Shown in pieces: positions 1 through 41,536 of a stretch of 46,321 bases of DNA. A program made the translations under genes and the position numbers. The stretch comes from Treponema sp. (GTDB lineage Bacteria > Spirochaetota > Spirochaetia > Treponematales > Breznakiellaceae). The notes beneath the pieces were generated by a model. The model ran no database searches. It worked only from the letters and a program-made list of their open reading frames with translations, and was not told where the DNA came from. The stretch's first letter is position 1, and each line of letters begins with the position of its first letter. The stretch covers positions 1 through 46,321 of the forward strand of contig QKCO01000016.1 of NCBI GenBank assembly GCA_003245635.1, read 5' to 3'.

Positions 1-78
1 TCAAGTTTCGATCCGCCCGAGAACGTCGTCAAGACGCTTATGACGCGCTTGCGGCGTTGACGAAAAGTCATTGCTGTT

Positions 79-107
79 TTGACAAATGACCGGCCCTGCG
101 CTAATAA
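79..107 (+). promoter_or_regulatory. sigma70-like promoter (TTGACA-17 nt-TAATAA) upstream of the yegP-like gene
   Basis: TTGACA at 79-84, a 17-nt spacer, then TAATAA at 102-107. The GGAGGA RBS at 131-136 and ATG at 140 follow. Confidence 0.35.
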
Positions 108-139
108 TTCAACAGCGAACTCATTCTACGGAGGACATT

Positions 140-322
140 ATGGCTGCAAAATTCGAGGTGTATCAGGACAAAGCAAAGAAGTTCCGCTTCAGGCTCAAAG
201 CCGGCAACGGACAGGTGATAGCGGTAGGCGAAGCCTACGAATCCAAGGCCTCCTGCTTGAACGGCATCGAGTCGATCAAGAAGAACGCCGCGGACGCCTC
301 AGTCGTCGACGTCGAGGAATAG
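140..322 (+). CDS. YegP/UPF0339 (DUF1508) family small protein
   Basis: ATG at 140 preceded by GGAGGA. The translation MAAKFEVYQDKAKKFRFRLKAGNGQVIAVGEAYESKASCLNGIESIKKNAADASVVDVEE has the single-repeat DUF1508 pattern (FRFRLKAGNGQVIA...Y.SK). Confidence 0.65.
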   Translation: MAAKFEVYQDKAKKFRFRLKAGNGQVIAVGEAYESKASCLNGIESIKKNAADASVVDVEE

Positions 323-326
323 CTTT

Positions 327-383
327 TACAAGGGGCTGTCCAAAAAGTTCGTAACACTTGTTTGGACAGCTTCCTTCTTGCGG
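327..383. repeat. ~57-bp intergenic palindromic element, copy 1
   Basis: The core GCTGTCCAAAAAGTTCGTAACACTTGTTTGGACAGC (335-370) is a 10-bp-arm inverted repeat, followed by TTCCTTCTTGC. It lies between the convergent ends of the yegP-like and 2-hydroxyacid dehydrogenase genes and is highly similar to the copy at 3345-3401. Confidence 0.5.
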
Positions 384-405
384 GTCAGCCTTTTTCGGAA
401 AACGG

Positions 406-1365
406 TCAGAGCTTCGGTTTGTTGACCGGCCAGCTCGGCGCCTTCCCCGAAAGCACTTCATCGATGCACCTTGCCGCATGCAGCGCCATGCGCAGGGTCG
501 CTTCTGCGGTCAAAGCCGCCGTATGCGGCGACAGGATCACGTTCTGCAAGCTCAACAGCGGATTGTCGGATCGAGGCGGCTCCGGGTCCAGCACATCCAG
601 GCCGGCCCCGGCTATGCGCCCCGACTTCAGGAACTCGTATATGTCCTCCTCGTTCACCACTTCGCCGCGCGCCGCGTTTACGAGATACGCGCTCGGCTTC
701 ATCAAGCCCAGCAGCTTCCTGTCGACGATCTTCTTCGTTTCCGCCAGGGCAGGCAGATGCAGGCTTATGAAATCCGCATTCTTGAACACGTATTCGATAT
801 CGGTCACGATTTCGGCATCGGGTACATCGCGGACGCTCTTGACGAAGGGGTCGTAGGCCAGGATTTTCATGTCCAAGCCGAAACGCGCTTTCCGGGCGAC
901 TAGGGAGCCGATGCGCCCCGCCCCCACGATGCCCAGCGTCTTGCCTTCCAGGTCGCAGCGTTTCGCCCGATTGCGGTACTCCCAGTCGCCGGCCCTCGCC
1001 GCCGCATCGCAGCGGACGGAATCCCGCGCAAGCGCGATCAGCATGCCGACGGCGTACTCGGCCACCGAGCCGGAGTTCGATTCCGGCGCGTTGGTGACCC
1101 ATATGCCGCGCTCGGCGGCGGCTGCGCAGTCGATATTGTCCACGCCGACGCCGTGCCGCGCTATCACCTTCAGCTTTTTGCCTGCTTCGATCACTTCCTT
1201 CGGGAAGGGCGCCGTCCGCGCCAGGATCGCGTCGCAATCGACGACGTCGGCTTTGATCGCTTCGATCGAGGCGCCGCTTCCCATTCTGATCTCGTATCCG
1301 CGATCGGTTAGATACTTCTTTCCCTCCGCCGCGATATCCTGCGGAATAAGAACGGTGAAACCCAT
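406..1365 (-). CDS. D-isomer-specific 2-hydroxyacid dehydrogenase (glyoxylate/hydroxypyruvate reductase / PGDH-like)
   Basis: The likely start is ATG at 1365 (MGFTVLIP), preceded by AGGGGG. It has the NAD-binding motif GIVGAGRIGS and the catalytic region typical of the D-2-HADH family (LHLP...NAARG...D...SPH). Confidence 0.85.
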   Translation of the reverse strand: MGFTVLIPQDIAAEGKKYLTDRGYEIRMGSGASIEAIKADVVDCDAILARTAPFPKEVIEAGKKLKVIARHGVGVDNIDCAAAAERGIWVTNAPESNSGSVAEYAVGMLIALARDSVRCDAAARAGDWEYRNRAKRCDLEGKTLGIVGAGRIGSLVARKARFGLDMKILAYDPFVKSVRDVPDAEIVTDIEYVFKNADFISLHLPALAETKKIVDRKLLGLMKPSAYLVNAARGEVVNEEDIYEFLKSGRIAGAGLDVLDPEPPRSDNPLLSLQNVILSPHTAALTAEATLRMALHAARCIDEVLSGKAPSWPVNKPKL

Positions 1366-1431
1366 ATTACCCCCTGAATCAAGCAGCGCTTTCGTCTTTG
1401 ACACCGGCGGGAGCATTGCGCTCCCGCTCGC

Positions 1432-2157
1432 CTACTTCGCGTTGCGCAAGGCGGCCATTTGGGTCCGCCATTCCTTCAGCGCCGCAAGATCCACTTCCTT
1501 GCCTTCGGCTATCGCTTTCCGGCAGCCGTCGAGAACCGGCATTTCGGCGGCGGCCGCTTTGCGGCAAGCGTCGCCCAGCTCGTGGGCGATCTCGTTCGGA
1601 ATCAGCACGACGCCGTGAACGTCCGCGGCCAGCAGATCTCCGGGCTTCACGGTCACGCCGGCGAAGGTCACCGGGCAGTCGTATTCCTCGATGTGGATAT
1701 ACCCGTGGGTGACCAGCAGGCACTTGGCGAAAAAGCCGAAGCCCAAGGGACCGACCTCATGGAGATCGCGCACGCCGCCGTTGGTGATCGTGCCCACCGC
1801 ACCCAGCGATTTATGCACGGTCGCGTTGACTTCGCCCCAGAAAGAGCCGACCGGTACCGGATCGATATCCTCGATGACGGCGATCGACGGACGCGGGGTC
1901 TTCTGCAGGACCCCGTAGTATTTCATCCAGTTTTCCAGATGCGCCGGGGTCGGCGGGTTGGCGGCCGACACTTTCGCCGTGCACGCGTACCCGATCATCG
2001 TCTTGCCGTACGGCAGAATGCACTTTATCTCCGGCGTCATGGCGCCTTCGATCCTCGAGCGAAGACCGAAACGCTCGATGGCGTTGGCGATGGTCGGTGT
2101 ATCGAATCCCCGCAGGCCTGCGACCTGGGCCGCCGTCAATTGCTTATTCGCTTCCAT
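1432..2157 (-). CDS. RraA-family protein (4-hydroxy-4-methyl-2-oxoglutarate / 4-carboxy-4-hydroxy-2-oxoadipate aldolase or oxaloacetate decarboxylase-like)
   Basis: 241 aa with AAGGAG upstream of the ATG at 2157. The RraA/MenG-like fold signature (GFDTPTIANA...GDLLAADVHGVVLIP) is present. Confidence 0.75.
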   Translation of the reverse strand: MEANKQLTAAQVAGLRGFDTPTIANAIERFGLRSRIEGAMTPEIKCILPYGKTMIGYACTAKVSAANPPTPAHLENWMKYYGVLQKTPRPSIAVIEDIDPVPVGSFWGEVNATVHKSLGAVGTITNGGVRDLHEVGPLGFGFFAKCLLVTHGYIHIEEYDCPVTFAGVTVKPGDLLAADVHGVVLIPNEIAHELGDACRKAAAAEMPVLDGCRKAIAEGKEVDLAALKEWRTQMAALRNAK

Positions 2158-2194
2158 CAGCGCGTTCTCCTTGTTCTATCCGTCAGTCTCATTT

Positions 2195-3316
2195 TTAAGA
2201 AGAATAGTTGCCCAGCTGCTTCCAGACCGAGGTGACCTCGGCGTAGCTGGCCATCGTCACTCCGGGCTCGAGAATATTGCCGCTCGTAAAGACGAAGCCG
2301 CCGCCGGGGGCCCCGTACGTCAAGGCGCGGGAGGCTTCTTCGCGGATTTCTTCCTTCGTTCCGGATATCAGCGTTTCCACGTTCATCCCGCCGAACAAGC
2401 ATAGTTTGCCGCCGTAACGTTCCTTCAGGAGCTTGATGTCCATTCCGATGCTCGGCTGAATTCCGTGCCAGCCGTCGATCCCCATCTCGACGAAGGAGTC
2501 GAGCACGTCCCACATCACGCCGTCTCCATGCTTGATGAAGTATTTGCCTTTCGCGTGCACGCTGTCGCAGATCCGCTTCAAATACGGCTGGATGAATTCC
2601 TTATAGCGGTCGACGCCCATGATGAGGCTCTTGCTGTCCGCGTAGTCCTCGGTCTCCATAACCGCGTCGCAGCCCGCATCGATGAAGGCATCAGCGTACG
2701 CGATGAACTTATTGCATTCGATATCCGCGATCTTATGGACTTGTTCTGGCTCGATTATCATCCGGATAAGGAACTCTTCCATCCCGACGGTATTCAGATA
2801 GGGGAACGTTCCCCCCACCGGAGGCTTGCCGATGATGAAGTGCGTCTTGCCCAGCTTTTTTACGATCGCCTCCGCGATCTCCATTTCGCAGTCTTCGATA
2901 TGAGCGACCGGGTCCGCGAAGATCTTTTCGACTTCCGCGTCGGGGTCCGTCACCACGGGGCAAACGACATTTCCCGCTTCCGGGTTGAATTCGAACTTTT
3001 TCTTTCCGTCGGTGAAAGCATGGTCGGCGACGCGCTTATACGCGGAATAATCCTTTTTCTTGGGCGCCGCCGGGACCCGAACATAATCCCACCCCATCTT
3101 CTCCGTGAGGGCGACGATCGAATCTATGTAGTCCGCAACCACCTTGTCCCGGTTGCCGGACCATAAGCTGTCGAGCTCTTCCCATCCGTGGTAGCAGAGC
3201 GAACTGTGCCCCATCACCTCTTGGAAAAAGGTATAGTCGAAGGCATTCTCGCCCCGAGGCACGCGATCGGCCTCCCGATGGCCGAGAGCGGCGATCATTC
3301 GTTCTTTTGAAGTCAT
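2195..3316 (-). CDS. uroporphyrinogen decarboxylase (URO-D) family protein (MtaA/CmuA-like)
   Basis: 373 aa. The N-terminus MTSKERMIAALGHREADRVP and the overall length and pattern are typical of URO-D-family decarboxylases/methyltransferases of anaerobes. Confidence 0.75.
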   Translation of the reverse strand: MTSKERMIAALGHREADRVPRGENAFDYTFFQEVMGHSSLCYHGWEELDSLWSGNRDKVVADYIDSIVALTEKMGWDYVRVPAAPKKKDYSAYKRVADHAFTDGKKKFEFNPEAGNVVCPVVTDPDAEVEKIFADPVAHIEDCEMEIAEAIVKKLGKTHFIIGKPPVGGTFPYLNTVGMEEFLIRMIIEPEQVHKIADIECNKFIAYADAFIDAGCDAVMETEDYADSKSLIMGVDRYKEFIQPYLKRICDSVHAKGKYFIKHGDGVMWDVLDSFVEMGIDGWHGIQPSIGMDIKLLKERYGGKLCLFGGMNVETLISGTKEEIREEASRALTYGAPGGGFVFTSGNILEPGVTMASYAEVTSVWKQLGNYSS

Positions 3317-3344
3317 ATTGTCGTCCTACCTGGATCTCCAGAAG

Positions 3345-3401
3345 ATAAGAGGCTGCCCGAACAGTTCGTAGAACTTGTTCGGACAGCTTCCTTATTGCTG
3401 C
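3345..3401. repeat. ~57-bp intergenic palindromic element, copy 2
   Basis: The core GCTGCCCGAACAGTTCGTAGAACTTGTTCGGACAGC (3352-3387) is followed by TTCCTTATTGC. It shares about 46 of 57 positions with copy 1. A compensatory A-to-G / T-to-C pair in the arms maintains the stem. It lies between the HIBADH-family stop and the URO-D-family start. Confidence 0.5.
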
Positions 3402-4312
3402 TAAGCGGAAGCTACGGCAGCCTTCTTTCTCACTTCGACACCCGCCACTTCCTCGAAAACCTTGATGATCGCCGAAGCGTCTTCCCGGCCGTAGCCCTTT
3501 CCGTTCGCCCAGAGGAATACCTCGCGGGATGCGGCGGAAGTATACAAGGGCACGTTGAGCTCCCTGCCGGTTTTCAGGCAGATATCGATATCCTTGATCT
3601 GAATATCCAGAGCGCCGCGGGTGCTGAAGTCGCCGTTCAGCAGCGCGTCGATCTTGTTCTCGAACATCCAGGAGCTTCCGGCGCTTTTCCTGATGATGTT
3701 CGCCATGATCTCCGGATCCGCACCCGCTTTGGTTCCGAGCACCAGAGCCTCCGCCATGGCGACCAGGTGCACCGTCACCATGAGCTGATTCGCGGCCTTG
3801 ACGACCGATCCGATGCCGATCTCGTCACCGACTTTCACCGCGTTGGAGCCGACGGCGAGAATAGCGTCCTTGCATTTCTGGAAGACCCGCTCCTCGCCGC
3901 CGACCATGATGACCAGCGTCCCGTTGGCGGCGCCGACAGAGCCGCCGCTGACCGGCGCGTCGAGCACCTCGACGCCCAAGGCGGAAGCGGCTTTCGCGAT
4001 CTGCTTGATCTCCGAAGGCGCGATCGTGCTGGTGACGATCAAGGTGCTCCCCGGCTTCATCCCGGACAGCACGCCGCCTGAGGCGACGGTGCTCGACTCG
4101 ACCTGGGCGAAATTCAGCACCATGACGAACACGATCTCAGAACGCTCTCCGACTTCCTTCAGGTTCGACGCGCCGAAAGCGCCCAGGCCGACCATTTCCT
4201 GAATAGGCTCCGGACGGATATCGAAAACGGTCAGTTCATACCCGGCCTTCAGCAGATTCTTCGCCATCGATTTGCCCATCGAACCTAAACCGATGATTCC
4301 TACCTTCTTCAT
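3401..4312 (-). CDS. NAD-binding beta-hydroxyacid dehydrogenase (3-hydroxyisobutyrate dehydrogenase / tartronate-semialdehyde reductase family)
   Basis: ATG at 4312 (MKKVGIIGLGSMG) with AGGAG 6 nt upstream. The Rossmann motif GLGxMG and the conserved catalytic lysine region (KAANQ) are present. Confidence 0.85.
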   Translation of the reverse strand: MKKVGIIGLGSMGKSMAKNLLKAGYELTVFDIRPEPIQEMVGLGAFGASNLKEVGERSEIVFVMVLNFAQVESSTVASGGVLSGMKPGSTLIVTSTIAPSEIKQIAKAASALGVEVLDAPVSGGSVGAANGTLVIMVGGEERVFQKCKDAILAVGSNAVKVGDEIGIGSVVKAANQLMVTVHLVAMAEALVLGTKAGADPEIMANIIRKSAGSSWMFENKIDALLNGDFSTRGALDIQIKDIDICLKTGRELNVPLYTSAASREVFLWANGKGYGREDASAIIKVFEEVAGVEVRKKAAVASA

Positions 4313-4321
4313 ATTCAACTC

Positions 4322-5206
4322 CTAGAGCGTATCGATGACAGCCTGGATCTCTGTATCGCTGAGCGTGATGTACTTGCCGCCGCGAACAGCCGTATTCTCG
4401 AACATTTCCAGAGTCCAGATATCGAACTCGGGTTCATTCTTGAAAATGAACGTTTCCTGGCTGGGCCGGATGGTCACGTTCGGGTTGTACTTCCAGGTGA
4501 TGTCGAACACTTCCTCCGGATGCGCGAGGGAATAGGTGATCTTTCCGCGGTACTCGTCGCCGACCTTGTACACGCAGGGAGTCGCGTTGCAGATCTTCCA
4601 TCCGATGCTTTCCATCTCGCGGCGGGCGAACATATCCAGCACCTTGGGATCGAAATTGATCTCGGTATTGCAGTGGATATGGGTAATGCCTTCCTTCTCG
4701 AAGTTCTCGACGTAGTAGGTCAGCCGCTTCCATTGCCGGGTGTTCTTGAACCAGTTCCGGATTTCTTCCTCTTCCTCGTATCCGACGCATTTGAAATCGA
4801 ACTGGCTGAACCACTTGTCCATGTACTTCTTGCCCCACCACAGGAGGTTCGTGCCGGCCTCGCCCCGGTTGTTGTCCATGGGCTGCAGGATCTTGTCGGC
4901 GCTGTATTCCCAGAACCAGTCGGTGAGCGGCATGAACCCCTTCCCCGCCGGATGGAGACCGTGCAGCGCGGCCCGGCCGGGCCCCGGTCCGACATGATCG
5001 ATGGCGCGGTCGAGGATCAGCCCGTTCGCCTTCATGCTGGCCTCGACGATCGGTTCCAGGCACTTGTACTCGACCTGGTTGTCCACGAAGGCGTGCACGT
5101 GGTAGACGGGTTCCTGCGGATTCTTCCACAGATCCATCGTGTCCTTCCAATGCTTGGATTTAAAATAATCGCTGACTTCCTGTACGATCTTGCTTCGCGT
5201 ATTCAT
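4322..5206 (-). CDS. hypothetical protein (294 aa, aromatic-rich, no recognisable family)
   Basis: ATG at 5206 with AGGAGG 6 nt upstream, and the gene is followed directly by the next gene's RBS. Its GC is lower than the neighbours, and the W/Y/F/K/E-rich sequence contrasts with typical proteins in this window. Reading-frame codon bias is clear. Confidence 0.6.
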   Translation of the reverse strand: MNTRSKIVQEVSDYFKSKHWKDTMDLWKNPQEPVYHVHAFVDNQVEYKCLEPIVEASMKANGLILDRAIDHVGPGPGRAALHGLHPAGKGFMPLTDWFWEYSADKILQPMDNNRGEAGTNLLWWGKKYMDKWFSQFDFKCVGYEEEEEIRNWFKNTRQWKRLTYYVENFEKEGITHIHCNTEINFDPKVLDMFARREMESIGWKICNATPCVYKVGDEYRGKITYSLAHPEEVFDITWKYNPNVTIRPSQETFIFKNEPEFDIWTLEMFENTAVRGGKYITLSDTEIQAVIDTL

Positions 5207-5216
5207 TGAATTCCTC

Positions 5217-5237
5217 CTGGTATACCTTGTATACGTT
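5217..5237. promoter_or_regulatory. candidate GntR-family operator (TGGTATACCTTGTATAC)
   Basis: Perfect 8-bp palindrome GGTATACC (5219-5226) followed by TTGTATAC. It sits just 5' of the RBS of the 294-aa gene. A near-identical motif occurs at 42945-42966. Confidence 0.4.
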
Positions 5238-5311
5238 CGTTCTACAGACTTGCTGCGTCTCTTTACCGTTTGCTGAAACGTGAGTGTTCGGCTATGCCGT
5301 TCTTAGTTCAT

Positions 5312-6826
5312 TCACTTTTTTGTTATTGCCTCCTTGATCTTCCCGACGATCATCCGAGGAATCCCGATCTGACTCAGGATCGTGTAGACAATCATGGCGA
5401 GAACGATCAGCGCGATCGGCCGCGTAACGAAAGGAGCGAAACTGCCGTCCGCGCCCTGCAGCGCCCGCCGGATATTGGTATCCGCCAGGGGCCCCAGAAT
5501 CACTCCGAGCACGATGGGCGCGGCGGGGTACTTCAGGCGATCGAAGGCATAGCCGAGAAGGCCGAACAGGAACATGACATAGAGATCGAAGATATTGATG
5601 TTGAGCGCGTAGCTTCCGATAATGGACAGCACAGCGACGATCGGCATCAGGATATACGGCTTGACCTTCAGAATATTCGGCGCGACATGGCAGATTGCCA
5701 GCGCGAATATCCGCATCACGAAAGCGGCCAGCAGCAGTATTCCTCCCATCTTGAAAATGAAGGTGGGGAACTCGAACGAGAGCATGGGGCCCGGCCGGAT
5801 GCCGTGCAGCCACAGCGCTCCCAGAAGGACCGCCGCCGGAGCGCTTCCGGGGATGGCGAGGCTGAGCAGTGGTATCAGCGCTCCGCCGATCGCGGCGTTG
5901 TTCGCCGTCTCGGCGGCGATGACGCCGTCGTAGGAACCGGTGCCGAATTTCTCAGGAGTCTTGCTGGCTTTCTTAGCCTGGTCGTAGGAGAGCCAGGCGG
6001 CGACATCCTCGCCGACGCCAGGGATCGCGCCGATGAAGGTTCCGATGGCGCCGGAACGCAGTATCGTCGGCGTGAACCGTCTGAGCATGGAGAACATGCT
6101 CATCTTCTCGGTCTTGCCGATTCCCGTCACTTTCGCCTCGCCCGGCTCAGCGGACAATTCGGCGATCACGTTCGGGATTCCGAACAAGCCGATCATGGCG
6201 GAGACGAACGCGACGCCTCCGAGCAAACCCATAATGTTGAATGTGTATCGGGGATACGAATAGATTCCTTCGAAGCCGATCGTCGAAATCGCGAGCCCCA
6301 GGAGGCCACCGATCCACCCCTTGATAACCTTCCCGGTCGCCGATAGGGAACCGCAGATCATGACGCCGAAAATAGCCAGCAATGCGAACTCTGCCGAAGT
6401 GAAGTTCAGCGCCAGCTTCTGCAGCAGCGGAGTGAAGCCCGCCAGGCAGATCATCCCGAACAGCGTTCCCAAGAAGGAAGCTATGAACGAAAGTTTGAGC
6501 GCCGTGCCGCCCTCGCCCTTGACGGCGAGCGGATGGCCGTCGAGGACCGTCGCCGCGGCGGAACCCGTCCCCGGTATTCCGATCAGAACCGACGATATCG
6601 AACCGCCCGATATGCCGCCGACATAGATGCCGAGAAGCACTATAAGCGCGACGTCGGTCGACATTCCATATGTGAGCCCCGCGAGCAGCGCGATGCCCAT
6701 GGTCGCGGTAAGCCCCGGCAACGCGCCCATGATCAGTCCGGCGACGGAGCTTACGGCCAGCAACAGAATATTCTGCACGGTGATCAAGTGCACTAATTCG
6801 GTGAAGAGACCAATTATCGAGTTCAT
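5312..6826 (-). CDS. tctA: tripartite tricarboxylate transporter permease TctA
   Basis: 504 aa, polytopic, with a glycine-rich TctA signature (GALPGLTATMGIALL, GIYVGGISGGSISSVLIGIPG). GAGAGGA RBS upstream. Confidence 0.9.
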   Translation of the reverse strand: MNSIIGLFTELVHLITVQNILLLAVSSVAGLIMGALPGLTATMGIALLAGLTYGMSTDVALIVLLGIYVGGISGGSISSVLIGIPGTGSAAATVLDGHPLAVKGEGGTALKLSFIASFLGTLFGMICLAGFTPLLQKLALNFTSAEFALLAIFGVMICGSLSATGKVIKGWIGGLLGLAISTIGFEGIYSYPRYTFNIMGLLGGVAFVSAMIGLFGIPNVIAELSAEPGEAKVTGIGKTEKMSMFSMLRRFTPTILRSGAIGTFIGAIPGVGEDVAAWLSYDQAKKASKTPEKFGTGSYDGVIAAETANNAAIGGALIPLLSLAIPGSAPAAVLLGALWLHGIRPGPMLSFEFPTFIFKMGGILLLAAFVMRIFALAICHVAPNILKVKPYILMPIVAVLSIIGSYALNINIFDLYVMFLFGLLGYAFDRLKYPAAPIVLGVILGPLADTNIRRALQGADGSFAPFVTRPIALIVLAMIVYTILSQIGIPRMIVGKIKEAITKK

Positions 6827-6842
6827 TCGTTTTCCTCTCTGC

Positions 6843-7388
6843 TTACGGCAGGGGTATCAGCGCATAATGCGAGAACCCGTAACTGACGATGAAGGAAGTC
6901 AGACCGCTGATGATCGTTATCTTCGCAAGCACTTTCCAGCTGAATTTCTCGTCTTTGAAAACCATCATGGTGATGAACAGGTAAAGGAAGGTAGAAATCT
7001 CGTATTGCACCCGCCCGATCATTACGTAGATATAGAGGACCAGAAGTCCCGTCGCGATCGACCATCTCCGGAAATGGGCCGTCTTAAAATAGGCAAGAGC
7101 TCTCTTGATATCCTCGCGATGGATTCCCTTCGATTCGGGAACGATCTGAATGAATAGGATCGCGAGGGCGATGAACATGCCGATGCTGATGATGATGGGG
7201 AAAACAGCCGGCGCCGTATACCATTTCTGCGGATCTCCGGTCACCGACTCTACCGGCATGCGCAGCGCGCCTATGAAGTAGAAGATGGTCGCGATCAGCA
7301 AGATCCCTCCGAAGATGAGATCTTTTTTCCGTAGGATTCTATTCTGTTCTTGTTCTTCGGTCTCGGAAATGTCTCTTTCGTCTGCCAT
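6843..7388 (-). CDS. tctB: tripartite tricarboxylate transporter small subunit TctB
   Basis: Small 4-TM membrane protein between tctC and tctA. Start chosen as ATG at 7388; the TTG at 7403 is also possible. Confidence 0.65.
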   Translation of the reverse strand: MADERDISETEEQEQNRILRKKDLIFGGILLIATIFYFIGALRMPVESVTGDPQKWYTAPAVFPIIISIGMFIALAILFIQIVPESKGIHREDIKRALAYFKTAHFRRWSIATGLLVLYIYVMIGRVQYEISTFLYLFITMMVFKDEKFSWKVLAKITIISGLTSFIVSYGFSHYALIPLP

Positions 7389-7440
7389 ACCGTCCACCTG
7401 CAAACCCGGCTCGGGATTTACGTCTTACCGTTCGTCGATC

Positions 7441-7470
7441 ACCGGAAAACGATTCTGATGCATGCCGCGC
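7441..7470 (-). promoter_or_regulatory. intercistronic stem-loops downstream of tctC
   Basis: CATGC-CGC-GCATG (7441-7453) overlaps ATGGGCGG-TTAG-CCGCCCAT (7451-7470; 8-bp perfect stem). No immediate U-tract follows on the minus-strand RNA. Confidence 0.35.
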
Positions 7471-7525
7471 ATGGGCGGTTAGCCGCCCATACACGGCAGT
7501 TCCAGATAAGCCAGCGCCCCTTGGC

Positions 7526-8557
7526 TTAAGGCTTCGCGATCCCGAAATCGCTGGGGGATTTCTTGGCCGCACCGAGGTCGTACAACGCCCAGGAATAAAC
7601 GGAATCCAGCTCCTTGGTTAGGTCGGCGGCTTCTTTTCCCTGGATACCGAGAAGATCGAACTTGGTATCGTTCGAAAGCTTTTTCATCAAATCCGATTTC
7701 ATCGCCACGGTGAACGCTTTCTGGTATGCATCCTTGATGTTCTGGGGCGTATCGCCGGGGATGCCGACGCCGACCCATACTTTTGGAGCAGGGAGCTTAT
7801 TGAAATCGGGATACAGTCCTGAAATCGCCGGAATCTCGCCGAATCCTTCCATCTTTACCGGCTCTTTCTCGATAACCGCGAGCGGCTTCAGTTTTCCGGC
7901 AAGAATGTACTCCCGCTGCTCCGCAAGTCCGGTGAGCGTGAAATCGACCTCGTGCGAGAGCGCCGCGACCATAGAAGGCTGGCTGCCTTCGTAGGGCATA
8001 TGATTGATTTCGAGTCCGGATACCTTCTCAAGCTGGGAAACTTTGAGATCCCATACGCTGCCGGCGGAGGAGCCGGAGGACTTGAGCTTTTTCGATTTGC
8101 CGGCGTTGATCAAATCCTGGATCGATTTATAGGGAGAATCTTCCGGAACGGACAAAACGCCGGGAGTCCCCATGGACATCAGGTAGTCCCATTTATCGTT
8201 GGTCACGTCGAAAGCGCCCACGACGTTGAGGGAATGCACGCCGGAAGAGCAGCCGAACAAAGTATAGCCGTCATGCTTCTGATTCCAAACATAATTCGCG
8301 GCAACGCCGCCCGCGCCGCCGGTCATGTTCACGACGGAAAAGGGAACGCCGAAATACTCTTCGAAAGCTTTTCCCAGGCCGCGCGCGGAAAGATCCGTGG
8401 CGCCGCCGGCTCCTGCAAATACGACGATGGATACCGGCCGAGCGGGCTTCCACTCTCCGGAGGACGCGCTGCTCGCTTCCTTTCTACCGTTGGCGAATGC
8501 CGTTGCCCCCAACAGCAAACAGAGCAGCAGAACCAGTGAATTTTTACCGAACTTCAT
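7526..8557 (-). CDS. tctC: tripartite tricarboxylate transporter substrate-binding protein TctC (Bug family)
   Basis: 343 aa with an N-terminal signal peptide and Bug/TctC family motifs (GGATDLSARGL...VNMTGGAGGV). AAGGAGG RBS upstream. Confidence 0.9.
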   Translation of the reverse strand: MKFGKNSLVLLLCLLLGATAFANGRKEASSASSGEWKPARPVSIVVFAGAGGATDLSARGLGKAFEEYFGVPFSVVNMTGGAGGVAANYVWNQKHDGYTLFGCSSGVHSLNVVGAFDVTNDKWDYLMSMGTPGVLSVPEDSPYKSIQDLINAGKSKKLKSSGSSAGSVWDLKVSQLEKVSGLEINHMPYEGSQPSMVAALSHEVDFTLTGLAEQREYILAGKLKPLAVIEKEPVKMEGFGEIPAISGLYPDFNKLPAPKVWVGVGIPGDTPQNIKDAYQKAFTVAMKSDLMKKLSNDTKFDLLGIQGKEAADLTKELDSVYSWALYDLGAAKKSPSDFGIAKP

Positions 8558-8792
8558 ACTAGATCCTCCTTAGTTCAACCCTGCAGGATTACTGCTTTAG
8601 TCGACTTTAGAAATCATTTTAATACACTTCTGAATATTGTCAATTTATTTCGCTTTATAATAAATCTATTTTTTGATATAATGAATTCATTTATAGATAA
8701 ATATCGCCTTATTTAAAGAGCTGAGAAACATTCTTGACGGAAAAGTTCCGAGGGAGTAATCTGATTTCACTTTAGTAAGATAGGATTCATAT
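8558..8792. promoter_or_regulatory. AT-rich divergent promoter region (tctC leftwards, gntR rightwards)
   Basis: 235 bp that is visibly far more AT-rich than the rest of the window, lying between the tctC and GntR starts, with multiple TATAAT/TTGAC-like hexamers. Confidence 0.5.
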
Positions 8793-9545
8793 ATGACTGA
8801 AAAGAATTCAAACAAACAAAAACCCTCGATGGATAAAGAACCGAGCGATGCTATCGTCATGGTCCACAACGCTTTGCGGGAAAAAATCATGAACAAGGAA
8901 CTGCTGCCGGGTGAAAAGATCAACCAGATTGCGGAGGCCAACCTACTTCATGTCAGCCGCACACCCGTGGTCAATGCATTGCATCGGCTTGAGTCGGAGG
9001 GCTTGGTAGACCGAACCCAGAATTCAGGTTTTACCGTACACCGCCTATCCATAGGTGAGCTTCAGGAGTTATTCGATCTGCGTGAGGTTTTCGACATCAT
9101 AGTAGCCAACGATTTGGCGATAAACGCTACCGATGAGGAAATCGACGTTCTCGAGAATCTATTTTCCCACTATTTAACGCATCCTGAAGAGTTGACGGTA
9201 GAGACCTACCGTGCGCTGGACCTGGAATTTCATACGCTGCTTGTCAAATACTGCCGCAACAGCATGATGCATAAGATCTACGATAATTTTCAGATACTTG
9301 CGAGAACCTATACGGCCGGACTGATCCGCCACTATACAGAAACGCTGCAGGAACACATGACCATCATAAACGCCTTTCGGCAACACGATCCGAAGGCCGC
9401 GGAAAAGGAAATGCGAGAACACAATGCTAAGACGACCTCTTTGATTCATGAAACCATATCGGGACTCAAGCGAATGGGGCTTGATCCCGGCACGATCCAT
9501 GTCGATGATGTCATGCTTTCGCGAAACGATCGCGCGGCGCCCTAA
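8793..9545 (+). CDS. GntR-family transcriptional regulator (FadR/FCD C-terminal domain)
   Basis: N-terminal winged HTH (GEKINQIAEANLLHVSRTPVVNALHRLESEGLV) plus an FCD-type helical C-terminal domain, 250 aa. Confidence 0.85.
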   Translation: MTEKNSNKQKPSMDKEPSDAIVMVHNALREKIMNKELLPGEKINQIAEANLLHVSRTPVVNALHRLESEGLVDRTQNSGFTVHRLSIGELQELFDLREVFDIIVANDLAINATDEEIDVLENLFSHYLTHPEELTVETYRALDLEFHTLLVKYCRNSMMHKIYDNFQILARTYTAGLIRHYTETLQEHMTIINAFRQHDPKAAEKEMREHNAKTTSLIHETISGLKRMGLDPGTIHVDDVMLSRNDRAAP

Positions 9546-9637
9546 TATCGGAGGAATGGAGCCGAAGCCATCCATCGGATTTATTTGACATTTAAGTCAT
9601 ATTTGAGAAATTTCTTCCTTATAGAAGGAGAGCCTTC

Positions 9638-10057
9638 ATGTTCGATTTCAGCCTTTCCTGGGTTCCGCTCGTCGTCGTCGCGCTCGCCAACTTCTTCATG
9701 AGCTGGCTCTGGTATTCCCCGATCCTGTTCATGAAGCCCTGGGCAAAAGCCCTCGGCACCTACGGCAAGACGGAAATGACAGAAGCCGAGAAGCGCGCCA
9801 TGCCCTTCCTTTTCGCCAGCGGACTCCTCTCGTCCTTCATCCTATCTTTCGGCCTGCAGGCGGTGGTCCGCGGACTCGGCGCCGAAAGCTTCGCGCAGGG
9901 AGCGCTCGCCGGAACGGTGCTGTGGGCGGTCTTCGCGCTCACCCACAGCCTCAATACGCTCTGGGAGGGCCGCAAACCGATCGTGCTCCTAATCAACAAC
10001 GGCCTGTTCCTGCTCACTTACGCGCTTTTCGGCGGTACCGTCGCCGTCTGGCGTTGA
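9638..10057 (+). CDS. DUF1761 family membrane protein
   Basis: The MFDFSLSW... start, 4 TM segments and 139 aa are typical of the DUF1761 architecture. GAAGGAG RBS upstream. Confidence 0.65.
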   Translation: MFDFSLSWVPLVVVALANFFMSWLWYSPILFMKPWAKALGTYGKTEMTEAEKRAMPFLFASGLLSSFILSFGLQAVVRGLGAESFAQGALAGTVLWAVFALTHSLNTLWEGRKPIVLLINNGLFLLTYALFGGTVAVWR

Positions 10058-10126
10058 CGCCGCCGCGCCGTTCTTCCTGGACTTTTCGCGCGATTACCGC
10101 TATTTTACCCGGATCAAGGAGTAACC

Positions 10127-10633
10127 ATGGACAACACGCGCGTACTGTTCGAAACGACCCTCGGAAATATCACGATAGAGCTCGACGACGAGAAGGCGCC
10201 CAATACCGCCAAGAATTTCGCCGACTACGCCCGCTCGGGCTTCTACGACGGCACGATCTTCCACCGGATCATCCCCGGCTTCGTCGTGCAGGGCGGCGGT
10301 ATGGAGAGCGGCATGAAGCAGAAAAAGGGCATGGACCCGATCCGCAACGAGGCGACCAACGGCCTCAAGAACCTGCGCGGAACCCTCTCCATGGCGCGCA
10401 CAAACGATCCTCATTCCGCCACGAGCCAGTTCTTCATCAACCTGACGGACAACGCGGCGCTCGACCACAAGGCGCCGACCGGCGCGGGCTGGGGCTACGC
10501 CGTTTTCGGCAAGGTGGTCGAAGGCATGGACGTGGTCGACGCGATGGCGAAGGTTCCGACCGGCAGTGCGGGCTTCCACGACGACGTGCCGAAGACCGAC
10601 ATTTCCGTCGTCAAGGCGTCCGTGGTCGGCTGA
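10127..10633 (+). CDS. ppiB: peptidyl-prolyl cis-trans isomerase, cyclophilin type
   Basis: Cyclophilin signature ([14 protein letters not shown]...GTLSMAR...SQFFIN); 168 aa; AAGGAG RBS upstream. Confidence 0.9.
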
Positions 10634-10657
10634 TCGCGGTCCCCCGGCGGGAAGCCG

Positions 10658-11455
10658 CTACGCTTTCCGCTCTTTCTTTCCCCAGCCCACGGCCGCGCGC
10701 ATGCGGGCGTGGGCGGCGGGGGAGAATTCCAATTTAACCGAAAGAGAAGCGAAGCCCGGCGCGTCGGCCGACTGCGCGGCTTCGGAACATTCGCCCTTCA
10801 GCGTGCAGGAGAGATCCCCCTCGGAGGGCTCGAACTCCACGATATCGCCGGGAGCGGGAAGCGGTCCTTCGAATTCGCCGAAAACGCGCATCGACCGCGC
10901 TGATATAGCGACGACCTTCAATCGATCCGCGACGCAGCCTTCCTTCAGGATCGATACGTGCGCGCATTGGAGGGTCTTCTCGATCTGCTCGCCGGACAGG
11001 TCCCCGTCCGGCGCTTCCTTGTAGAAGAGCTCCGCTTCGTCGACATTCATGAAATACGACACGAGCAGTTCCTTGAACGCGAGAGGCGCGGTCGAAAACT
11101 CGATGTCGATGAAGCAGTAGGGGGAGGCGGGATCGGGCTTGCGGAACGCGACGATGCGGCAGACCAGAAAGAAGCTCTCCGGCTTCGAGCTGTAGGGCGA
11201 TTTCCAGGTGATCGAGAATTTCTGCTGCTTCGCCGCGTACGGCGAGAAGAAGCCGACTTCGCGTTCGCTCAAGAAAGCCAGAAGACTCGCCTTGCCGAGC
11301 GAAAGGTCGAACGGCACGCAGGAAACGAAGAATTCCTCGATCCGCAAATGGATGCTTTTCTTTATCAGCCCGAGCCGATCGAAAACCGCCGGCGTCAGCC
11401 GGAGCGTCCGATCCTGGTAGGCCGCTGCTTTCTCGTTGACCAGTCGGGAGTCCAT
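10658..11455 (-). CDS. hypothetical protein, possible PilZ-domain (c-di-GMP binding) protein
   Basis: Start ATG at 11455 (MDSRLVNEK) with GGAG upstream. The N-terminal half has an RxxR...(~30 aa)...DxSxG arrangement reminiscent of PilZ, but the match is weak. Confidence 0.45.
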   Translation of the reverse strand: MDSRLVNEKAAAYQDRTLRLTPAVFDRLGLIKKSIHLRIEEFFVSCVPFDLSLGKASLLAFLSEREVGFFSPYAAKQQKFSITWKSPYSSKPESFFLVCRIVAFRKPDPASPYCFIDIEFSTAPLAFKELLVSYFMNVDEAELFYKEAPDGDLSGEQIEKTLQCAHVSILKEGCVADRLKVVAISARSMRVFGEFEGPLPAPGDIVEFEPSEGDLSCTLKGECSEAAQSADAPGFASLSVKLEFSPAAHARMRAAVGWGKKERKA

Positions 11456-14125: not shown

Positions 14126-14130
14126 GGGGA

Positions 14131-14166
14131 CGCAACCGCCCGGAAGCGGAGAACTTCCGGGCGTTG
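14131..14166. terminator. bidirectional stem-loop between the convergent MCP and aminotransferase genes
   Basis: GCAACcGCCCGGAAG-cggagaa-CTTCCGGGCGTTGC forms a 14-bp stem with one bulge. It sits between the stops at 14125 and 14178, and T-rich sequence follows. Confidence 0.5.
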
Positions 14167-14177
14167 CTCACTCGGCG

Positions 14178-18211: not shown

Positions 18212-18313
18212 CGATCGGCGGCCCGCGACTCGAACAGTCTATTGAACGCTCACGGATCCGGGGGTTAAAAGCCCTCGGATCTTTGTTCCAAGCCGATCAC
18301 ACGGAAGGTTCGC

Positions 18314-23314: not shown

Positions 23315-23324
23315 CGCTCCGGAT

Positions 23325-23345
23325 CGGCGCGGAAATCGCGCGCCG
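23325..23345. terminator. GC-rich hairpin between convergent genes (weak terminator candidate)
   Basis: CGGCGCG-gaaatcg-CGCGCCG forms a 7-bp stem with no U-tract. Confidence 0.25.
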
Positions 23346-23363
23346 GCCGATTCAGCGAACCGT

Positions 23364-41444: not shown

Positions 41445-41536
41445 TCTTCCACCTACGGGTACGCTGATGCGGAGAAGCCGCGCCGGCCCCGGGAACCCGG
41501 AATCCGGCGCGTTTTCCTTTTTTCAGAAAATCTGCC

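Follow-up and report, generated by a model that had tools for sequence, protein, structure and literature searches.

Why does one short palindrome stand twice, each time at a gene end, near the beginning of a Treponema contig? The DNA in question, here called the window, is contig QKCO01000016.1 of Treponema sp. (assembly GCA_003245635.1) at its full length of 46,321 nucleotides, and the palindrome is an asymmetric unit of ~57 nt that can be folded into a hairpin. Judged by covariance-model scores and shared flanks, the window pair is not private; its two copies are solo units of a dispersed repeat family that is found in other treponeme genomes. The account that we favour as a whole, and hold to be rather probable, is that these solo units belong to a family resembling repetitive extragenic palindromic (REP) sequences and transposable elements of the miniature inverted-repeat type (MITEs), and that they serve as hairpins at transcript ends. 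We infer that the family is mobile and that it acts at the RNA level.

A repeat search of the window paired 330-389 with 3347-3406 (family D8) at 82% identity over 60 nt; the remaining repeat families lay at the chance level of 60-79%, except for one 28-nt copy at 89%. A pattern of 27 specified bases common to both copies occurred at these two sites only (shuffles expect 0.00), as did the arm pattern GCTGYCC-N18-26-GGACAGC. Both copies read on the + strand, where a covariance model gives 65 and 58 bits, versus 21-24 bits on the - strand. Each carries the asymmetric flanks by which the family is recognized (GGG ahead of the left arm and CTTCCTT-NNTGC behind the right one), here as (G/A)GG...CTTCCTT-NTTGC, and the three derived bases that they have in common (GTTCG-TA and TTGC) indicate that both descend from one sub-lineage of it.

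When genomes (one per species) were scanned with the pattern GCTGNCC-N20-24-GGACAGCTTCCTT, 64 stretches were returned, 28 of which hold 29 matches that are near-identical copies of the unit. These copies come from nine termite-gut Treponema or Spirochaetaceae metagenome-assembled genomes (MAGs), with exact-pattern counts of eight in Gsp477_bin147, seven in Cc175_bin57 (both fragmentary) and four in Gx481_bin31. About half of the 64 stretches were set aside as chance matches in coding sequence or as ordinary terminators from other phyla (e.g. Paenibacillus L036). A looser flank pattern gave 38 matches in a metagenome scan, where the real members are only the full units L068, L071, and L080 and the truncated L092, the other matches being due to chance in coding sequence. 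The window-specific loop pattern GTTCGTANNACTTGTTNGGACAGC had no match in the metagenome contigs, the viral contigs held no copy of the unit, and the plasmid collection returned only an unrelated YegP match.

As a guard against circularity, covariance model R2 was trained on the 28 foreign copies alone, with the window copies excluded. It recovers both window sites, at 325-383 with 65.1 bits (E ~1e-13) and at 3342-3400 with 58.2 bits (E ~5e-12), and beyond the reverse strands of these sites it finds no further match in the window at E <= 1. Family members score 50.6 to 85.8 bits under model R1, and the values for the two window copies are given in the table below. The family consensus is GGGGCTGTCCGAAAAGTTTGAAAAACTTGTTCGGACAGCTTCCTT-ARTGCGG, to which copy 1 is 86.5% and copy 2 84.6% identical. 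The host of the window belongs to the same lineage as the repeat carriers: its [FeFe] hydrogenase is Treponemataceae-like (the nearest named relative is from a Treponemataceae MAG, at 75% identity) and the carriers are termite treponemes, related to Leadbettera azotonutricia, Treponema primitia, and Breznakiella (GltX 76% identical to that of L. azotonutricia and 73% to that of T. primitia).

All foreign copies are intergenic, they occur in both orientations relative to the adjoining genes, and the genes beside them are unrelated to each other (ABC transporter parts, purA, gltX, a GH3 glycosidase gene, znuA, and others). Several lie at contig ends, as expected because repeats break assemblies. 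Eight solo units, the window's two included, have a readable context; every one of them is downstream of at least one gene 3' end, and five fill convergent gaps (binomial P ~0.03 versus a 25% expectation, in a small sample), those of L034 and L067 filling short gaps as copy 1 does. The first-pass annotation had described a ~57-bp element present twice in the same orientation, with both copies at gene ends, and had named a REP-like repeat among its options. The repeat search finds no third site, the positions of the open reading frames (ORFs) bear out the gene ends, and the MAG matches, the metagenome units, and the recovery of both sites by R2 support the REP-like option; the scan of other genomes shows the intergenic placement in nine further MAGs as well.

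The unit is a REP/MITE-like dispersed palindromic repeat, which is not to say a proven member of either the REP or the MITE family. In the literature on palindromic and miniature repeats in Treponema and other spirochaetes we found no paper on the unit family. Rfam 15 gave no match at gathering score in the window and none to the unit in 77 kb of Treponema loci (12 loci), and E-value scans of window positions 250-3500 and of one composite element containing the unit (see below) gave only sub-threshold matches at chance level. MITEs are abundant in Spirochaetes, including Treponema, according to a published census (PMC11602168). The kind of element is well known, and the family is apparently a member of it that has not been described.

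In the Treponema loci the unit is usually hairpin 1 of a three-hairpin composite that is 136 or 153 nt long. Hairpin 2 is GCATTTGCG...GCAAATGC, and hairpin 3, GGGCTGTCCGGGAAGT...ACTTCCTGGACAGCCCC, is an inverted relative of hairpin 1, so that the composite has inverted ends; its terminal inverted repeats, GGGGCTGTCC...GGACAGCCCC, are 10-19 nt long (19 nt in L042). We saw it in L005, L019, L020 (6612-6764), L023, L032, L033 (2479-2614), L041, L042, L045, L048, L050, L060, L066, L068, and L071. The window holds solo units only and no composite. The composite matches no Rfam family and may be a structured RNA or else a MITE-like element not described before. The bases on its two sides tend to be reverse complements of each other, as in AATTT/GGGG...CCCC/AAATT. 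The idea that the CTTCCTT flank is a target-site sequence came from AAGGAAGC at the empty gltX site of L115, and was rejected because the composites have CTTCCTT in their interior, where it separates hairpin 1 from hairpin 2.

A second short hairpin repeat, AACCRRCCGGGTT...ACAAGTC, is present in some of the same regions (L014:7217-7241, L031:6513-6537, L032:251-275, L033:2384-2408, L041:908-932, L042:3-27, and L045:5930-5954) and is absent from the window. It lies 8-90 nt from the unit or composite in six of the seven Treponema loci and much farther away in L031. Since the spacer between the two is unconserved, the intergenic regions there are clusters of distinct repeat families.

With this membership in view, the positions of the two window copies can be considered in turn. 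Copy 1 fills the convergent gap between the stop codon of a DUF1508 (YegP-like) gene, at 322, and that of a D-isomer 2-hydroxyacid dehydrogenase gene, at 406-408; it starts directly past the former and lies 22 nt from the latter. Copy 2 lies between two - strand genes: it adjoins the stop codon of a HIBADH-family gene (3401-3403), and 25 nt separate its end from the start codon of a URO-D-family gene (3316). The minus-strand genes follow each other in the order TctC, TctB, TctA, an ORF of 294 aa, HIBADH-family, URO-D-family, RraA-like, and 2-hydroxyacid dehydrogenase. The string has a single strong promoter-like site, at its head (8616-8643), and the HIBADH-family/URO-D-family junction (3317-3400) has no promoter-like site; transcripts must therefore cross copy 2 before they arrive at the URO-D-family, RraA-like, and 2-hydroxyacid dehydrogenase genes.

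Table. Positions in the window of the two palindromic units and of the genes and promoter-like site around them.
Feature	Position	Strand	Basis or remark
Copy 1 of the ~57-nt palindromic unit	325..383 (hairpin core 330-376)	+	Repeat pair D8; R1 71.7 bits, R2 65.1 bits
Copy 2 of the ~57-nt palindromic unit	3342..3400 (hairpin core 3347-3393)	+	Repeat pair D8; R1 66.1 bits, R2 58.2 bits
DUF1508 (YegP-like) gene	86..322	+	ORF; Pfam PF07411, E = 1e-24
D-isomer 2-hydroxyacid dehydrogenase gene, final gene of operon	406..1416	-	ORF, Pfam
URO-D-family gene, directly downstream of copy 2 on the transcribed strand	2195..3316	-	ORF, Pfam
HIBADH-family dehydrogenase gene, directly upstream of copy 2 on the transcribed strand	3401..4318	-	ORF, Pfam
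294-aa ORF, no Pfam match, between TctA and HIBADH-family gene	4322-5206	-	89% identical in L001
TctA	5312-6826	-	
TctC	7526-8557	-	
GntR/FCD regulator gene, divergent	8793-9545		Upstream of operon
Sole strong promoter-like site for the TctC-to-2-hydroxyacid dehydrogenase string	8616..8643	-	TTGACA-16-TAAAAT, 11/12 matches

The predicted folds of the two copies have energies of -23.6 (+) and -26.7 (-) kcal/mol for copy 1 and -30.6 (+) and -30.0 (-) kcal/mol for copy 2, with z-scores from -2.4 to -4.8 over both copies and either strand. The stem consists of 10 pairs, a one-base bulge, and 4-5 further pairs around a loop of 3-7 nt, and the AAGG/CCTT flanks lengthen it; it is imperfect in having this bulge as well as wobble pairs. 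The first-pass annotation was right about the hairpins, but the arms of 10-12 bp and loop of 12-16 nt that it gave them are too short a reading, since the stem continues past the bulge. In the left arm of copy 2 an uncompensated T-to-C change (GCTGCCC) produces a C.A mismatch on the + strand and a G.U pair on the - strand. An attempt to tell the strand of function from such G.U and C.A pairs was dropped, as the copies give conflicting signals. In an alignment of 30 units 90% of the cells pair, and conservation is about the same in the loop and flanks as in the stem, which argues for common descent (or sequence constraint) rather than for selection on structure only. The pattern in this alignment points to a repeat family with recent shared ancestry or under sequence constraint.

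The stop codons at 322, 406-408, and 3401-3403 are 4-30 nt away from the hairpin ends, the placement of the stem-loop of an intrinsic terminator. They are followed on the + strand by UUCCUUCUU and UUCCUUAUU, and on the - strand by CCCUUGUAAAA (copy 1) and CUCUUAUCUUCU (copy 2). The U-rich minus-strand tail that had been noticed behind copy 2 is thus present, but it partly pairs with the A-rich 5' flank. Folded in its minus-strand mRNA context, copy 2 still forms its hairpin and leaves most of the Shine-Dalgarno stretch unpaired.

Comparison with related loci shows what else can occupy such positions. Locus L001 is syntenic with the window's operon and encodes proteins 65-89% identical to the window's, except for the last dehydrogenase (47%). 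Its HIBADH-family/URO-D-family junction holds an unrelated hairpin of 8-9 bp followed by UUUU, and an unrelated terminator follows its last gene. A similar picture is seen at the gltX junction, where L017 has a rearranged unit, L115 and L116 (GltX 97% identical) have a different perfect palindrome that covers both stop codons, and L117 (78%) has a third hairpin. As far as these comparisons go, a hairpin is present at both junctions in every case, and turnover of its sequence is by replacement. Loci L112-L114, with more distant URO-D homologues, are non-syntenic and were uninformative.

Hairpins of this general kind are native to the window as well. Its own gene-end and intercistronic hairpins are long palindromes, most of them with no clear U tract, so that the weak U tracts of the unit are no argument against a 3'-end role here. 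Long perfect palindromes without U tracts lie in the convergent gaps 14126-14177 and 23315-23363 of the window and at L115:6480-6535 and L109:12050-12102, and transcript ends in this lineage may not rely on canonical U-tract terminators. Very strong unique hairpins at 7404-7525, 18212-18313, and 41445-41536 directly follow the TctC, DctP, and SBP_bac_8 genes and precede genes for membrane components; in one of them the stem is 16 bp long and the intergenic region as a whole folds with -58 kcal/mol. A hairpin after the gene for the binding protein is a classic arrangement that raises expression of that protein. At L115:222-275, between clpS and clpA, there is an intercistronic, AT-rich perfect palindrome of 50 nt, ATTAGAGTCTGTCTATAA...TTATAGACAGACTCTAAT, which is unrelated to the unit.

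When these observations are put together, a role for each copy can be proposed. The copies would probably have reached their sites by inserting into, or replacing, earlier 3'-end hairpins, and the family could have spread either by a transposase acting in trans or by recombination. Once transcribed, each copy is predicted to fold into a stable hairpin. Between the YegP-like gene and the operon, which converge there, copy 1 would then most likely serve as a transcript-end hairpin in both directions. Copy 2, by analogy with operon hairpins elsewhere, would most likely be an intercistronic attenuator or stabilizer that part-terminates, or protects, the upstream mRNA from TctCBA to the HIBADH-family gene and still permits read-through into the URO-D-family, RraA-like, and 2-hydroxyacid dehydrogenase genes. 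An attenuator or partial terminator is plausible at this junction because it has no promoter-like site and because an unrelated hairpin with a T run is found there in the syntenic relative.

A number of observations weigh against this account. Only two copies are present in 46 kb, this contig alone being counted for the host's own genome, and neither 62 kb from the closest relatives of the host nor the syntenic locus L001 contains a copy. Both copies lie within the lower-GC first 9.5 kb of the window. On the operon strand the hairpin of copy 1 is followed by a poor U tract (CCCUUGUAAAA), and a simple consensus terminator scan of the window called neither copy. A change of A to G in one arm matched by T to C in the other had been taken in the first-pass annotation to mean that the structure is under selection. 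The swap is there (CCAAA/TTTGG in copy 1 versus CCGAA/TTCGG in copy 2), but the evidence for selection on the fold is not significant, because no other of the 20 pairs is changed on both sides and 114 of 500 shuffles equal this; checked in this way among the 30 aligned sequences, the stem covariation that the annotation wished to see is thus not supported. As to mobility, reading the flanks of 13-15 composites revealed no target-site duplication, and no transposase adjoins any copy among 25 of the 50 Pfam families matched by the 37 nearest ORFs. A one-by-one check of 10 small ORFs near copies also found no transposase, and in the fetched loci there is no insertion sequence that shares the composite's ends and could be its parent.

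The most serious rival explanation is that the copies are neutral relics, that is, the decaying remains of a formerly active repeat, possibly brought in with a horizontally acquired operon of lower GC, and are intergenic filler only. The copies could be such relics: they are ~17% apart and 13-15% from the consensus, compared with a mean pairwise identity of 94% among the Treponema copies, copy 2 has its uncompensated stem change, both lie in the segment of lower GC and third-position GC (1-9500), and the other 37 kb of the window (R1 and R2 scans) are as empty of copies as the 62 kb from close relatives. However, both hairpins are still almost fully paired, both stand where relatives retain some hairpin, and solo units elsewhere are likewise found at 3' ends. 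We regard neutral decay as possible though unlikely.

It is improbable that the unit or composite is instead a structured RNA module selected for its fold, either a small RNA or a mobile regulatory RNA, of which the window copies would be reduced attenuators. What speaks for this is the composite: RNAalifold predicts three hairpins from 13 composites, with 9 of 49 pairs kept via double changes, mainly in hairpins 2 and 3, and the L068 variant rewrites several pairs of these two hairpins and retains the fold. Yet palindromic DNA repeats keep complementary arms without any RNA function, the covariation of hairpin 1 is not significant, and copies stand in both orientations beside unrelated genes, with no built-in promoter or terminator and no Rfam match.

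We consider it very improbable that the copies are no more than ordinary local terminators of the operon, alike through local duplication or convergence and with no wider family. Both do sit at gene ends, fold well, and have the + strand tails cited above, but a model built from foreign copies alone finds both sites at high significance, and loop and flanks are common to 28 copies at unrelated loci; the genome scan and the R2 results contradict this explanation. Finally, a protein-binding palindrome, whether an operator for the divergent GntR/FCD regulator or a signal of the DNA-uptake type, is hardly credible: the arms are perfect 10-bp inverted repeats and a GntR/FCD gene is upstream of the operon, but the copies are at 3' ends, the promoter region 8558-8792 has neither GCTGTCC nor GGACAGC, an arm spacing of 16 nt is atypical for GntR/FCD-type operators, and the unit adjoins unrelated genes in other genomes, which also makes the protein or small-RNA target named in the first-pass annotation unlikely in a pathway-specific form. 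The GntR operator was rejected on the empty promoter region, and a DNA-uptake sequence because GCTGTCC is not enriched outside the copies. An integron attC site was likewise rejected, there being no GTTRRRY core at the ends of the unit and the flanking genes forming an operon syntenic with L001, which has no unit.

The operon in which copy 2 lies has some features of its own. It spans 406-8557 (-), with its counterpart at L001:4767-12976, and combines TctCBA with the HIBADH-family, URO-D-family, RraA-like (aldolase/decarboxylase family), and 2-hydroxyacid dehydrogenase genes, under a GntR/FCD regulator; it looks like an uncharacterized organic-acid catabolic pathway. The 294-aa ORF belongs to this transporter-plus-enzyme operon as a conserved, uncharacterized component, and in L001 a second TctCBA set lies beside the operon. 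GC content is 0.56 over 1-9500 and 0.64 over 9501-46321 (third-position GC 0.59-0.82 versus mostly 0.78-0.92); this low GC and third-position GC, together with a GC of 0.49 in L001, suggests that the Tct operon may have been acquired from a lower-GC donor. Elsewhere in this part of the window, a promoter-like site at 79-108 would put the start of the YegP-like gene at ATG 140, and the 1.1 kb between the GntR gene and a PilZN3-domain ORF (9546-10657) contain no confident gene, the ORF at 9922-10737 having no Pfam match.

An apparently private pair of palindromes thus becomes a recognizable family that can be annotated in Treponemataceae MAGs, where such repeats break assemblies and could, if not annotated, pass for regulatory RNAs. 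Should the hairpin role be confirmed, spirochaetes would have in this family a counterpart of the REP elements that set transcript ends and expression ratios within operons, and it would illustrate how 3'-end hairpins turn over by replacement and not by point mutation; no new kind of mechanism is opened by this. A bolder reading, which we regard as doubtful, is that unit and composite are an undescribed mobile hairpin cassette that spreads among termite-gut treponeme genomes and has repeatedly been co-opted to replace ancestral 3'-end or intercistronic hairpins. If that were true, a mobile element would set the polarity of the operon, here the ratio between its TctCBA-to-HIBADH-family segment and its segment of URO-D-family, RraA-like, and 2-hydroxyacid dehydrogenase genes, and the composite could be an RNA selected for its structure or else a non-autonomous transposon of a new kind that makes no target-site duplication.

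Among known systems, the closest likeness is to the REP sequences and bacterial interspersed mosaic elements (BIMEs) of enterobacteria and pseudomonads, which are mobilized by RAYT (REP-associated tyrosine) transposases of the Y1 type. Like them, the unit is a short imperfect palindrome, strictly extragenic and multi-copy, that takes both orientations and frequently stands at a 3' end or in an intercistronic gap, and in the Treponema loci hairpins 1-2-3 form mosaics in which two related palindromic units are inverted around a linker. By analogy, the expected effect on mRNA would also be the same, with a 3' hairpin stabilizing the upstream transcript or attenuating read-through, and the REP hairpins of E. 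coli operons are the model for the effect that we propose for copy 2. The differences are that the unit measures ~45-57 nt against 20-40 nt, that the alignment has variable bases 5' of GGGG and no GTAG-type tetranucleotide, that the Pfam matches listed for the closest ORFs show no RAYT gene beside copies, that the copies seen number tens per MAG at most, not hundreds, and that the unit occurs in a different phylum, Spirochaetota.

With MITEs the composite shares a non-coding, intergenic, multi-copy nature, a similar size, and inverted ends. It differs from them in that no target-site duplication is seen, the bases flanking its ends tending instead to continue the palindrome, and in that the fetched loci hold no parent insertion sequence with the same ends; in the window there is only the solo hairpin. 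The third comparison is with bidirectional intrinsic terminators at convergent gene ends. Here copy 1, L034, and L067 are alike in filling a short gap with a long hairpin that has A/G-rich 5' and U/C-rich 3' flanks, and palindromes of like shape but unrelated sequence occupy native convergent gaps in the window and in L115. The U tracts of the unit are interrupted or absent, however, its terminator role is a predicted one, and unlike ordinary terminators the unit keeps the same sequence, loop and flanks included, at unrelated loci and in different genomes.

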